Part shown: positions 1 to 8,832 of the stretch, piece by piece
How the letters are laid out: each line of letters begins with the position of its first letter
Numbering within the stretch: the first letter of the stretch is position 1
Source: Candidatus Pacearchaeota archaeon
Lineage (GTDB): Archaea > Nanobdellota > Nanobdellia > Pacearchaeales > GW2011-AR1
Length of the DNA stretch: 15,785 nucleotides
NCBI GenBank assembly: GCA_050124795.1
Contig: JASFEO010000018.1
Coordinates: 1 to 15,785 of the forward strand
Reading direction: 5' to 3'
Translations under genes and position numbers: made by a program
The notes under the pieces: model-generated
What the model saw: only the letters and a program-made list of their open reading frames with translations
Databases searched by the model: none
Told to the model about the DNA's origin: nothing

Positions 1-56
1 AGCGAAAGACATTTATTTGAGAATGTTTTTATTACATTTCTCATGTATCTATGAGT

Positions 57-77
57 AAGTAGGGCTTTGCCCTACTT
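57..77. repeat. Perfect 9-bp inverted repeat (hairpin)
   Basis: AAGTAGGGC-TTT-GCCCTACTT in non-coding DNA. Confidence 0.7.
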
Positions 78-173
78 TAATATTTCTTTAAATTTTAGAA
101 TTACGAATTTTCATCGGAGATACTGTTTTGGTTTTTGTCGACAAGAGAATGGGCTTAAGGTTTTAAATATGTT

Positions 174-303
174 AATGGACCTGCCTGGCTCCTGACCTCG
201 CACGAAGTTTTTATTTTTTTATCCTGAATTTTTTTGAACTTCTACCACGAAGTCACTCGGTCGAACAAAAGAAATCTTCTTGAGTTTAGTCCGACGTAAC
301 GGC
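174..303 (-). ncRNA. Candidate structured ncRNA / tRNA-linked element, tRNA-Ala copy
   Basis: Shares GGACTA..AAGAT, CCGAG, GTGGTAG and CGTGC motifs and a covarying 7-bp helix with 4085..4190; ends in a copy of the tRNA-Ala 3' end (174..185 = 432..443). Confidence 0.65.
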
Positions 304-315
304 AAAAAATCAATG

Positions 316-341
316 AACCAATCTCCGAAGGAAGATTGGTT
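316..341 (-). terminator. Hairpin after the tRNA-3'-like sequence at 344..351, possible terminator or processing signal
   Basis: AACCAATCT (316..324) / AGATTGGTT (333..341), followed on the minus strand by a T6 tract. Confidence 0.45.
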
Positions 342-343
342 AT

Positions 344-399
344 ATGGACCTAGGAGTTCATCAAACACAAAATCCTAGGAATTAGTCCAACATAACGAC
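344..399 (-). repeat. Short version of the tRNA-Ala-linked element
   Basis: 382..399 matches 286..303 at 15/18; contains GTGTTTGA (T-loop-like); ends AGGTCCAT like tRNA-Ala. Confidence 0.6.
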
Positions 400-404
400 A
401 TTCG

Positions 405-427
405 AAAACGATGTCTAGAAGACATCG
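405..427 (-). terminator. Hairpin plus T4 directly after tRNA-Ala
   Basis: CGATGTCT (409..416) / AGACATCG (420..427), then TTTT on the minus strand. Confidence 0.5.
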
Positions 428-433
428 CGAGAA

Positions 434-505
434 TGGACCTGCCGTGAGTCGAACACGGGTCTCCTGAGTGCAAATCAGGTATCTTAGCCATTGGACAACA
501 GGCCC
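434..505 (-). tRNA. tRNA-Ala(UGC)
   Basis: Cloverleaf GGGCCTG/CAGGTCC-A with G3:U70, anticodon arm CCTGA-TT TGC AC-TCAGG, T-loop TTCGACT; no encoded CCA. Confidence 0.97.
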
Positions 506-1220: not shown

Positions 1221-2660
1221 AGGAGGTGATCCATCTGCAGGTTCCCCTACAGATACCTTGTGACGACTTAACCTACCTTGTCTACCCAAAGTTTTCCCCG
1301 AAGGTTTCACCATAAATAAACTTGGTTGGTTTGACGGGCAGTGTGTGCAAGAGACAGTGACTTATTCACCGTTCGCTGATAACAAACGATTACTACGGAT
1401 TCCAGCGTCACGAGGCTGAGTTACAAACCTCGATCTGGACTGAGACGAACTTTAAGGGGTTGGCTCCACCTTTCGGTGTTGCATCCCGTTGTATTCGCCA
1501 TTGACGCGCGCGTGTAGCCCAGGGTATTCGGGACGTACCACCTGACGTAGCCCACACTTTCATCCTCGTTACCAAGGCAATCTCACTATAGTTCAAATAG
1601 TAAATAGTGATGTGGGTCTCGCCTGTTACCTGATTTAACAGGTCACTTCACAGCACAGGCTGACGTCGGCCATGCATCTCCTCTCAGCGTGTCAGGTAAG
1701 CCCTTTAGACTGACCTTCATCCTGCTGTCGGTCCTGGTGAGGTTCGCCCTGTAAGATCGCATTGAACCGCACGCGTCACCCGTTGTAGTGTCTCCCCGCC
1801 AATTCCTTTAAGTTTCGGCCTTGCGACTATACTTCCCAGGTAGCACACTCTTCGGCTTCCCTACAGCACTAATACCTCCCGAAGAGGTACTAATGTTTAG
1901 TGTGCAGTGTTTACTGCCAGGACTACACGGGTATCTAATCCGTTTTGCGCCCCTGGCCTTCATCCCTTACTGTCAGAACTGTCCTCGTAAGATGCCTTCG
2001 CTATTGTGAGTCCGAATAAGATCAGAGCATTTTACTACTACTTTATTCGTACTTCTTACGTCTTCCAGTCTCTAGTTTGGCAGTACTTCCTGCCCGCTTT
2101 GCACTTAAGATACAAAATTTCACAGGAAACTTAACAAACAAGCTACGGATGTTTTAGACCCAATAAAAATGGCTGCGACTTGGACCGCGAGTATTACCGC
2201 GGCGGCTGGCACTCGTCTTACCCAGTCCTTATTCGCCAAACTTTTTACATTTGGCAAAAGTCTTTCGAATGAAAAACACTCTGGCTCAATCTGTCATACT
2301 TTCGTACATTGCAGAATATTCCTAACTGCTGCACCCCGTGGGGCTGGGAATAGTGTCTCAGATTCCCTCTCAGGGCCTCTTCGCTAAAAGCCCTTACAGA
2401 TCACCGGCTTGGTGGGCCATTACCCCGCCAACAACCTAATCCGGCGCAACCTCATCCTTGAGCACGAGTTTGGGAGATAAGTCATTCCAGGGCAAATCTC
2501 CTATCAGGTTTTAGACACAGTTTCCCGTGCTTATCCCTGACTCAAGGGTAGATTAGTTACGTGTTACTGAGCAGTTCGCTTACCTCTATTACTAAAGATA
2601 AAACTTGCATGTCTAAGCGCAAACCAGAGAGCCGCAGCCGCCAGCAGGATCAACTGGATT
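1221..2660 (-). rRNA. rrs: 16S rRNA (archaeal, DPANN-like)
   Basis: 5' AATCCAGTTGATCCTGC, GTGCCAGCCGCCGCGGTAA, ATTAGATACCC, AAACTTAAAGGAATTGGCGGG, 3' GGATCACCTCCT; ~1440 nt. Confidence 0.99.
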
Positions 2661-4084: not shown

Positions 4085-4190
4085 AATGGTCCATATCCCC
4101 CAAGCCTGCACGCAACTTTATGGGTTATTGTTACTACCACAGACTTGCTCGGAATTGAAGGAACATCTTATAGTGTCTAGTCCTATATCC
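4085..4190 (-). ncRNA. Candidate structured ncRNA / tRNA-linked element, tRNA-Val copy
   Basis: Same motifs and helix as 174..303; ends in TATGGACCA (4087..4095), which equals the tRNA-Val 3' end (4228..4236). Confidence 0.65.
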
Positions 4191-4227
4191 TCTACAAATA
4201 AATAATCTTGCTCTGTAATATTATAAG

Positions 4228-4299
4228 TGGTCCATAGAGGAATTGAACCTCTGTCTACTCGGTGTAAACGAGTCGTCTTAGCCATTGGACTAATGGACC
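4228..4299 (-). tRNA. tRNA-Val(UAC)
   Basis: Cloverleaf GGTCCAT/ATGGACC-A, ACTCG-TT TAC AC-CGAGT, AGAGG-TTCAATT-CCTCT. Confidence 0.97.
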
Positions 4300-8586: not shown

Positions 8587-8590
8587 GTGA

Positions 8591-8731
8591 TCCCCCCACC
8601 AAGATTCGAACTTGGGATCTCCCGGGTGCTGCTTGCAACCGAACTGGCTTTTAGGGTTTCATAGTTATCATGATTGAATCTCCACCTTAGTAATCTACAG
8701 CCAGGCGCTCTAACCACTGAGCTATGGAGGG
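8591..8731 (-). tRNA. tRNA-Tyr(GUA) with a 68-nt intron at 37/38 (8627..8694)
   Basis: C1:G72 acceptor CCCTCCA/TGGGGGG-A; CCTGG-CT GTA G|intron|C-CCGGG; BHB central helix CUGU/GCAG. Confidence 0.93.
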
Positions 8732-8832
8732 ATTATATAAACTAAATTTCTATCTTTTTAAGATTTGCCATTTCCCAAAAAACATATTCTCAATCTCAAC
8801 AATCTTTAAATACAATAAATATCCAATAAAAA

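Follow-up and report, generated by a model that had tools for sequence, protein, structure and literature searches.

A covarying, strand-specific structured element behind archaeal tRNA genes, one copy of which interrupts tRNA-Gln(CUG) as an intron

The window analysed here is an entire 15.8-kb contig (C18, JASFEO010000018.1; 15,785 nt) of Candidatus Pacearchaeota archaeon, an archaeal genome of 1.06 Mb with 32% GC in 38 contigs (GCA_050124795.1, referred to as G000, with its contigs as C numbers). At the Rfam 15 gathering thresholds the window contains just a 16S rRNA gene and two tRNA genes, tRNA-Ala(UGC) and tRNA-Val(UAC), both of which are intact and trailed by one copy of a structured element whose core lies 172 nt downstream of the complete tRNA-Ala and 73 nt downstream of the complete tRNA-Val. 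In G000 the element follows a common order, namely an intact tRNA, a short filler, a family-specific 5' module, a T-loop-like echo, the core hairpin, GGAG(TWAG) and an echo of the tRNA 3' end. The features concerned, all on the minus strand, are as follows.

434..505, minus strand: tRNA-Ala(UGC), intact, trailed by copy 1 (ARAGORN; Rfam tRNA, 56.4 bits)
443..432, minus strand: copy 1, direct repeat 1, GGCAGGTCCATT, the last 10 nt of tRNA-Ala plus 2 trailer nt
344..388, minus strand: mini-element of 45 nt, GGACTAA...CCTAGGTCCAT, between tRNA-Ala and copy 1, a hairpin whose last 8 nt repeat the tRNA-Ala end, AGGTCCAT
274..292, minus strand: copy 1, 5' module GGACTAAACTCAAGAAGAT, seen in G000 only together with the core
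260..267, minus strand: copy 1, T-loop echo TGTTCGAC, identical to tRNA-Ala 455..448 and directly 5' of the core
189..258, minus strand: copy 1, core, with GAG, N7 blocks TGACTTC/GAGGTCA, internal loop GTGGTAG/CGTGC, upper stem GAAGTT/AACTTC, an A-rich loop and GGAG
174..185, minus strand: copy 1, direct repeat 2, GGCAGGTCCATT, the tRNA-Ala 3' end plus 2 trailer nt
4227..4299, minus strand: tRNA-Val(UAC), intact, trailed by copy 2 (ARAGORN; Rfam tRNA)
4236..4228, minus strand: copy 2, direct repeat 1, TATGGACCA, within tRNA-Val
4165..4183, minus strand: copy 2, 5' module GGACTAGACACTATAAGAT, the same variant as behind tRNA-Asp on contig C16
4151..4159, minus strand: copy 2, T-loop echo TTCAATTCC, identical to tRNA-Val 4247..4239
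4097..4150, minus strand: copy 2, core, with GAG, N7 blocks CAAGTCT/AGGCTTG, internal loop GTGGTAG/CGTGC, upper stem TAAC/GTTG and GGGG
4087..4095, minus strand: copy 2, direct repeat 2, TATGGACCA, a copy of the tRNA-Val 3' end
2660..1221, minus strand: 16S rRNA gene (Rfam)

A preliminary description of the window, made from its letters alone, had aligned the segments 174..303 and 4085..4190 as one structured family, and this alignment stands for 292..174 and 4183..4087 on the minus strand: GGACTAAACTCAAGAAGAT and GGACTAGACACTATAAGAT are identical in 15 of their 19 letters, both segments go on as CCGAG-N7-GTGGTAG-hairpin-CGTGC-N7'-GG, and the N7/N7' blocks pair in both copies, with five of the seven pairs doubly changed, one A-T pair unchanged and one U-G pair kept. 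It had missed the tRNA-end direct repeat closing each copy, which is 12 nt long behind tRNA-Ala and 9 nt behind tRNA-Val, where the second repeat runs on as TTAT, like the tRNA-Val trailer with one indel; it had also missed that the family is far larger than two members. The mini-element at 344..388 lacks the core and is a smaller tRNA-trailing unit of its own, and similar units occur behind an identical tRNA-Ala in two metagenome contigs (L135 and L121).

The core is a hairpin of about 65 nt, GAG-N7-GUGGUAG-stem/loop-CGUGC-N7'-GGAG, where compensatory changes occur both in the 7-bp lower stem and in the upper stem, while GUGGUAG and CGUGC, the internal-loop strands between the stems, are invariant or nearly so. 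In a MAFFT alignment of 15 genome copies, 93.8% of the cells form standard pairs and double changes occur at 10 of 16 pairs; on four of five measures not one column shuffle out of 500 attains the value observed, and pairing drops to 32-48% in slid registers. Across 62 distinct copies from several genomes, 89.7% of the cells pair, with double changes at 11/16 pairs and 0/500 shuffles reaching the observed value, figures which overstate independence, as this alignment was fitted to the model and its copies are related. G-U is found at three pair positions in nearly all of these 62 copies. The sense strand is more stable than its complement in 14/15 copies with RNA parameters and in 15/15 with DNA parameters, and minimum free energy (MFE) folding recovers the hairpin in both window copies. 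The core fold is thus under selection, and being favoured on one strand it is compatible with RNA and single-stranded DNA alike, strand asymmetry being unable to separate the two.

Even at E<=10, no Rfam 15 family is matched, whether tRNA, 5S, SRP, RNase P, C/D, H/ACA, RtT or ribozyme: there is no hit over 174..303, and over 4085..4190 there are only chance-level overlaps with snR44 (13.3 bits, threshold 33) and permuted tmRNA (9.7 bits, threshold 47). The core is hence a strongly covarying structured element family without an Rfam match. Known motifs were compared by inspection, and none of them fits: the internal loop has no tandem G-A as in a K-turn, there is no ACA as in H/ACA RNAs and no D box as in C/D box RNAs, position 14 is not A as in a hammerhead, and the AAC/GTT of an integron attC site is not invariant. 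A D-arm-like alternative hairpin (CUUC-GUGGUA-GAAG) is lost in copies with other N7 ends. A long-range helix between the 5' module CUAAACUC and the post-core GAGUUAG pairs in the Leu and Pro copies, but CAC faces an unchanged GAG in 4/11 copies, and no covariation is seen in this helix by eye among the 11 copies.

A regular-expression search followed by a covariance model trained on 15 genome copies identifies 18 full copies in G000, all with E<=1.3e-11, among which the two window copies score 70.8 bits (181..261, copy 1) and 61.5 bits (4089..4153, copy 2). For 14 of the 18, an ARAGORN tRNA precedes the copy on the same strand at a distance of 23-172 nt, the tRNAs trailed being Leu-UAA, Lys-UUU, Pro-UGG, Ser-GCU, Glu-CUC, Arg-UCG, Ser-UGA-like, Gly-UCC, an intron-containing Leu-like gene on C11, Cys, Asp, Val, Ala and Ile-GAU. 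An extra copy behind tRNA-Arg(CCU) is truncated in the loop and fused to a 17-nt tRNA-end copy. Of the remaining full copies, one is a 63-nt intron at position 37/38 of tRNA-Gln(CUG) (C3:77486-77621), two lie within reverse-transcriptase (RT) sequence on C2, and one (C23:8588-8654, minus strand) is placed 14 nt before the ATG of a 116-codon open reading frame (ORF). About 90 nt upstream of the C23 copy sits GCGAGGGCA, which resembles a tRNA 3' end, and no tRNA is detected there. Core loop types and 5' modules combine as mosaics, and neither terminal inverted repeats nor a fixed target duplication is found among the copies examined. The further homologues, the tRNA association and the covariation expected from the preliminary description thus all hold in larger alignments, and the fold it proposed is conserved, covarying, strand-specific and co-oriented with tRNAs, as judged from the shuffles, the folding of both strands and the census.

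The 3' echo starts after GGAG plus 0-8 bases and is a copy of the 3' side of the T-arm and the 3' strand of the acceptor stem of the tRNA that is trailed, sometimes continuing into the trailer. The 34 nt after the core match their own tRNA best in 13/14 copies (two ties), the Cys copy being the miss, and the mean longest common string is 9.9 nt with the own tRNA vs 4.9 nt with other tRNAs; the variable post-core segment is degenerate in the Pro, Cys and Asp copies. An exact copy of at least 8 nt of the last 14 nt of the tRNA occurs within 350 nt downstream of 10/35 tRNAs, vs 1/35 for the upstream control. The core is present at all 10 tRNAs with a downstream echo, and 0/19 coreless tRNAs have one, so that echo and core arise together; the idea that the core was inserted into pre-existing echoes is rejected on the same ground, as no coreless tRNA carries an exact echo of at least 8 nt. 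By inspection, the 3' echo is without a 5' partner strand for an acceptor stem. On the other side, the 6-9 nt immediately 5' of the core are T-loop-like and often represent the T-loop variant of the own tRNA, such as those of the Ala and Val copies listed above, so that echoes flank the core on both sides, starting at tRNA positions ~47-53. The 5' module was considered as a copy of the tRNA-Gln anticodon arm, a proposal that was dropped, as alignments of 12 modules with all tRNAs are not above shuffled controls. A run of at least five T occurs between tRNA and core in 3/14 copies, the tRNA-Ala copy included.

The core at position 37/38 of tRNA-Gln(CUG) must be removed as an intron, which links the dispersed repeat with a tRNA intron. 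This intron-containing gene scores 47.9 bits in G000, and the core-bearing intron is also found in G026 (L034) and in a further metagenome-assembled genome (MAG; L060), the three sharing the ends CUCUGG|(U/G)CGAG ... GGGAGA(U/G)|A. By inspection, GGAG of the intron can pair with the loop bases CUCU (C32-U35) in a helix of 4 bp (CUCU/GGAG), which leaves a 3' bulge of 3 nt, AUA; in the stable register, however, the bulge on the 5' side measures 7 nt, and a different pairing is chosen in MFE folds, so this is at most a candidate for a strict bulge-helix-bulge. The two window copies differ from the Gln copy in that neither interrupts an otherwise complete tRNA, and their MFE folds are without a two-bulge motif. 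Among same-family genomes with a detected tRNA-Gln(CUG), 10/14 have it intronless (G001, G004, G007, G012, G013, G014, G015, G016, G018 and G023), while the intron of G008, 67 nt long, keeps the ends but has a different interior, and G020 has a 54-nt degenerate relative. As the species tree is poorly resolved, gain and loss of the Gln intron are not distinguishable. G000 has a single EndA frame, of 176 codons; for DPANN lineages with many disrupted tRNA genes, the available text of PMC5829648 describes alpha4-type enzymes with an extra loop.

On C2 (608-1725), a complete RT gene of the type found in diversity-generating retroelements (DGRs) is split by the element between Pfam RVT_1 positions 105 and 119. 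The inserted element carries a (CT)n tract, and the full-length RT copy is out of frame, while a 5'-truncated duplicate (C2:37818-38722), 91.7% identical, is shorter by one CT unit and stays in frame; the difference could be slippage-dependent on/off switching, or simply decay. The RT orthologue of G005 is 28 residues (84 nt) shorter exactly at the element site and is the clearest site without the element for the core family, in a comparison that spans different genera. Other candidate enzymes in G000 are two IS200-type Y1 genes (C26:1603-2031 and C27:8518-8871), of which the C26 gene is flanked by hairpins CGCAGCTCTGCTGCG, and two Phage_integrase-family genes (C3 and C5), an ordinary number.

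The distribution of the element was surveyed in 60 relatives, most of them 60-95% complete, comprising 36 same-family genomes of other genera and 24 genomes that represent eight other families in the order. With the covariance model, 7/36 same-family genomes have 1-10 matches and 0/24 genomes of the other families have any, so that copies per genome among related genera range from 0 to 18. An exact core pattern scanned against one genome per GTDB species gives 40 loci, which were then checked with the covariance model: 34 are MAG contigs of the Nano-, Pace- and Woesearchaeota (DPANN) confirmed by the model, and the six bacterial loci, GC-rich coding DNA, are rejected by it. The tRNA-linked design recurs at nine of the archaeal loci, where the tRNA-end repeat extends to 15 nt (L084), 31 nt (L086, of which 21 nt lie beyond the tRNA) and at least 40 nt (L056), and another locus is the tRNA-Gln(CUG) intron of L060. 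The remaining archaeal loci have G-rich flanks (GGGTGGGCGAG ... CGAGTTGGCGGG) and no tRNA, and at two of them the core lies, in sense orientation, inside an open frame (322 and 160 codons). The L056 contig opens with an apparent Illumina adapter remnant, TGTGCTCTTCCGATCT, right before the tRNA-end repeat, which is an assembly artefact. In viral contigs, the one exact variant of the core pattern that was tested has no match.

A sister family of the core family shows an insertion polymorphism. Behind an identical tRNA-Ala, three metagenome contigs (L130, L133 and L136) contain an insert of ~90 nt with a T-arm echo TTGTTCGACTCAC and, as echo of the 3' end, a second AGGTCCA; the insert is missing in six contigs with the same downstream flank (L122, L127, L129, L132, L134 and L138). 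The T-arm echo of this insert pairs with an upstream complement, and the architecture is as in the core family.

Both segments of the window are thus provisionally assigned to a structured element of DPANN archaea that is multi-copy, non-autonomous, probably selfish and related to a tRNA intron, an assignment of moderate confidence. The selfish-repeat interpretation is drawn from the patchy copy number, the mosaic flanks, the truncation, the copies within protein-coding frames and the duplicated tRNA ends. The same features bear on the 'selected RNA' of the preliminary description, of which the conserved strand-specific fold stands, whereas a functional RNA gene agrees poorly with copy numbers of 0-18 and with these flanks, the one truncated copy, the copies within coding frames and the tRNA-end duplicates. 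The internal loop (GUGGUAG/CGUGC) may be the recognition site of a copying machinery acting on RNA or single-stranded DNA, and spread would proceed by homology-guided copying via the T-arm and 3' end common to the target tRNA, which stays intact. In one version, a small circle with a tRNA 3' segment that the core interrupts would integrate by a single crossover and yield the order tRNA-filler-echo-core-echo; in another, templates would be switched at tRNA genes during replication or repair. Later gene conversion, with the adjacent tRNA as donor and the hairpin looped out, could keep the echoes matched.

Several observations weigh against a selfish repeat. An invariant internal loop with covarying stems would suit a functional RNA as well, and the T-loop echo best matches its own tRNA in only 7/14 copies (mean 7.6 vs 5.4 nt), the low number being attributable to T-loops that are common to many tRNAs. 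The scatter of element-bearing genomes on an RpoB tree, where G026 with 10 copies is sister to G012 with no matches (Shimodaira-Hasegawa-like approximate likelihood ratio support, SH-aLRT, 82), speaks for a selfish repeat, but the tree is a quick and poorly resolved one with 14/27 forks open. For the core family itself no empty/filled pair is found in the metagenome contigs searched: the empty-site pattern for the youngest copy (tRNA-Arg UCG) matches 0 contigs, and the core is present in 0/22 contigs sharing an identical 30-nt tRNA-Ala 3' half. No mobilising enzyme is tied to the element among the TnpB, Y1, RT and integrase genes checked. TnpB/Cas12-type domains are absent from the five element-bearing genomes searched, the ends of the Y1 transposase gene bear hairpins unrelated to the core, and an RT is found in 3/5 element-bearing genomes and not in G026, which is 84% complete and has 10 copies. 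The repeat length, from 6 to at least 40 nt, together with the lack of terminal inverted repeats matches no classical transposase of fixed stagger.

The element might instead be a functional non-coding RNA family derived from tRNA transcription units, whose loop binds a protein and whose echo serves as a processing or stability signal, as has been proposed for rtT of the E. coli tyrT operon; this is considered rather unlikely. Besides the invariant loop and stems that covary across genera, such a function would suit the 14/14 tRNA-linked copies on the tRNA strand, the preference for the sense strand in folding, the copy 14 nt ahead of an ATG and the retention of the core as the tRNA-Gln(CUG) intron in three genomes. 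It is at odds with the absence of the element from 29/36 related genera, with copy numbers of 0-18 per genome, with one truncated copy and others inside coding frames, with an echo that has no 5' partner strand for the acceptor stem, and with the run of at least five T, a usual archaeal stop signal, that separates tRNA and core in 3/14 copies. A doubtful extension of the intron relationship is that an archaeal tRNA intron behaves here as a mobile element, the T-loop insertions in partial duplicates behind 15 other tRNAs being intermediates of intron gain, where a single recombination event, joining the T-arm of the tRNA with its echo, would bring the core into the gene as a non-canonical T-loop intron. 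Mobility at the RNA level, in which the excised Gln intron is ligated by tRNA ligase into T-loop-broken pre-tRNAs, the chimera reverse-transcribed from its trailer by the resident DGR-type RT and the complementary DNA integrated beside the tRNA by homology, is improbable. The core is a bona fide 37/38 intron, it is flanked on both sides by echoes from tRNA positions ~47-53, the repeats take in unprocessed trailer of varying length, an RT is encoded in the genome, and the within-gene copies are sense in 3/3 cases, all of which would agree with such a route. However, both RT copies are interrupted by the element and one is truncated, G026 has its 10 copies with no RT found, DGR RTs are template-specific, and the conserved 5' module, not tRNA-like above shuffled controls, is left unexplained.

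Two further proposals take the direct repeat itself as their starting point. Scars of the attL/attR type, left by decayed tyrosine-integrase elements once integrated in the 3' parts of tRNA genes, would account for a second, directly repeated tRNA 3' part next to an intact tRNA, the genome does encode two Phage_integrase-family genes, and recombinase-bearing elements integrate at archaeal tRNA genes according to the available text of PMC3293823. They are nevertheless very unlikely here, as the same insert of 80-250 nt occurs at 15 different tRNAs, no integrase is nearby in the window, where the 73-172 nt between tRNA and core are non-coding and the integrase-family genes lie elsewhere (C3 and C5), the echo is split by the core instead of being contiguous, the core is also found as an intron, in ORFs and in contexts without a tRNA, and the one exact variant of its pattern is unmatched in viral contigs. 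It is hardly credible that the element is a guide RNA comparable to TnpB omega RNA or to the homing guides used by CRISPR-associated transposons, with a conserved scaffold and a 3' guide matching the tRNA gene. A structured scaffold is indeed followed by a variable segment of 10-21 nt identical to the neighbouring tRNA end, yet a TnpB/Cas12-type nuclease domain is found in 0/5 element-bearing genomes, the variable segment is degenerate in the Pro, Cys and Asp copies, and many copies in relatives are without a tRNA-like tail.

Whether as a selfish repeat or as a mobile intron, the element family is of interest for the four settings in which it occurs, namely as a canonical tRNA intron, as a T-loop-echo insertion beside intact tRNAs, inside an RT gene and as a free repeat. 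Introns are frequent in archaeal tRNA genes. As closely related genera have the same tRNA intronless, it provides a tractable system for asking if tRNA introns and small mobile repeats are one thing. How archaeal tRNA introns arrive is still an open matter in the available text of 10.64898/2026.10.13.758758, and a mobile intron, if true, would offer a concrete, testable route. If the element is plain selfish DNA, it is still an undescribed strand-specific repeat that targets tRNA tails and makes up a visible share of the intergenic DNA in a 1-Mb genome. For annotation, partial tRNA copies and structured repeats in DPANN genomes will be misread by tRNA and gene finders.

Three other observations concern the window. 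On the minus strand at 8589-8732, ARAGORN reports a tRNA-Asp(GUC) with a 68-nt intron, which is below the Rfam tRNA gathering score and has the loop CUGUAGA as in tRNA-Tyr(GUA); it is probably an intron-containing tRNA-Tyr mislabelled by standard tools. In window 1-433, no 23S follows 16S and tRNA-Ala before the contig end, so the rRNA operon may be unlinked or the contig may merely stop; four other contigs with the same tRNA-Ala (L124, L128, L139 and L141) reach 23S within ~300 nt. Among four RNA runs, coverage of the locus is limited to the 16S gene, with run X2 containing identical 16S pieces.

A description of the element was not found in the literature, as covered by open-access full text, and its relation to known systems is one of partial likeness. 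The rtT RNA of E. coli, or tRNA-linked repeat, is a short non-coding unit behind a tRNA, closed by a copy of the 3' end of that tRNA. The rttR sequence sits in the tyrT operon and has an unknown mode of action, according to the available text of 10.1101/2024.07.17.603846. The present element likewise forms a unit directly behind the tRNA ending in a tRNA 3'-end copy, but it gives no match to the rtT model (RF00391) at E<=10, belongs to another domain of life, has another core hairpin and reaches 18 copies per Mb. Among tRNA integration sites, a T-loop sublocation class was reportedly distinguished by Williams in 2002. As in att repeats, the 3' part of the tRNA is duplicated, the gene is intact and the repeat begins in the T-arm. 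Integrative elements targeting tRNA genes in archaea are represented by the Caldiarchaeum model in the available text of PMC3293823. The insert described here differs from them in comprising 80-250 nt without a recombinase gene, in an echo split by a hairpin and in occupying 15 different tRNAs.

Repetitive extragenic palindromic sequences (REPs) and the bacterial interspersed mosaic elements (BIMEs) built with them, Rickettsia palindromic elements (RPEs) and miniature inverted-repeat transposable elements (MITEs) are short, multi-copy, non-coding hairpins, RPEs also being found in frame within protein genes. The element shares with REP, RPE and MITE sequences its short length, multiple copies, hairpin formation, non-coding nature, patchy presence among relatives and in-frame gene copies, while it is unlike them in the lack of terminal inverted repeats and of a fixed target duplication, in a strand-specific fold with conserved G-U pairs, in targeting tRNA tails and in having one copy that acts as a tRNA intron. 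From the palindrome-associated transposable elements (PATEs) and omega RNAs of the IS200/IS605 group it is distinguished by the absence of a TnpB-type domain in the five genomes and by the Y1 genes, which are flanked by the different hairpin CGCAGCTCTGCTGCG.

Among described phenomena, the closest is the presumed transposition of tRNA introns in the Thermoproteales, where near-identical intervening sequences in different tRNA genes and positions imply that introns move, which is thought to occur at the DNA level by a mechanism that is unknown (Fujishima et al. 2010, as cited in the available text of PMC4090602). As in the Thermoproteales, an intron-like sequence occurs at several tRNA loci. 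Unlike there, only the Gln-CUG copy at 37/38 is spliceable here, the other tRNA-linked copies lying in a partial 3' duplicate outside the functional tRNA; further copies are found in ORFs and intergenic DNA, and the lineage is DPANN, with a single EndA of 176 codons.

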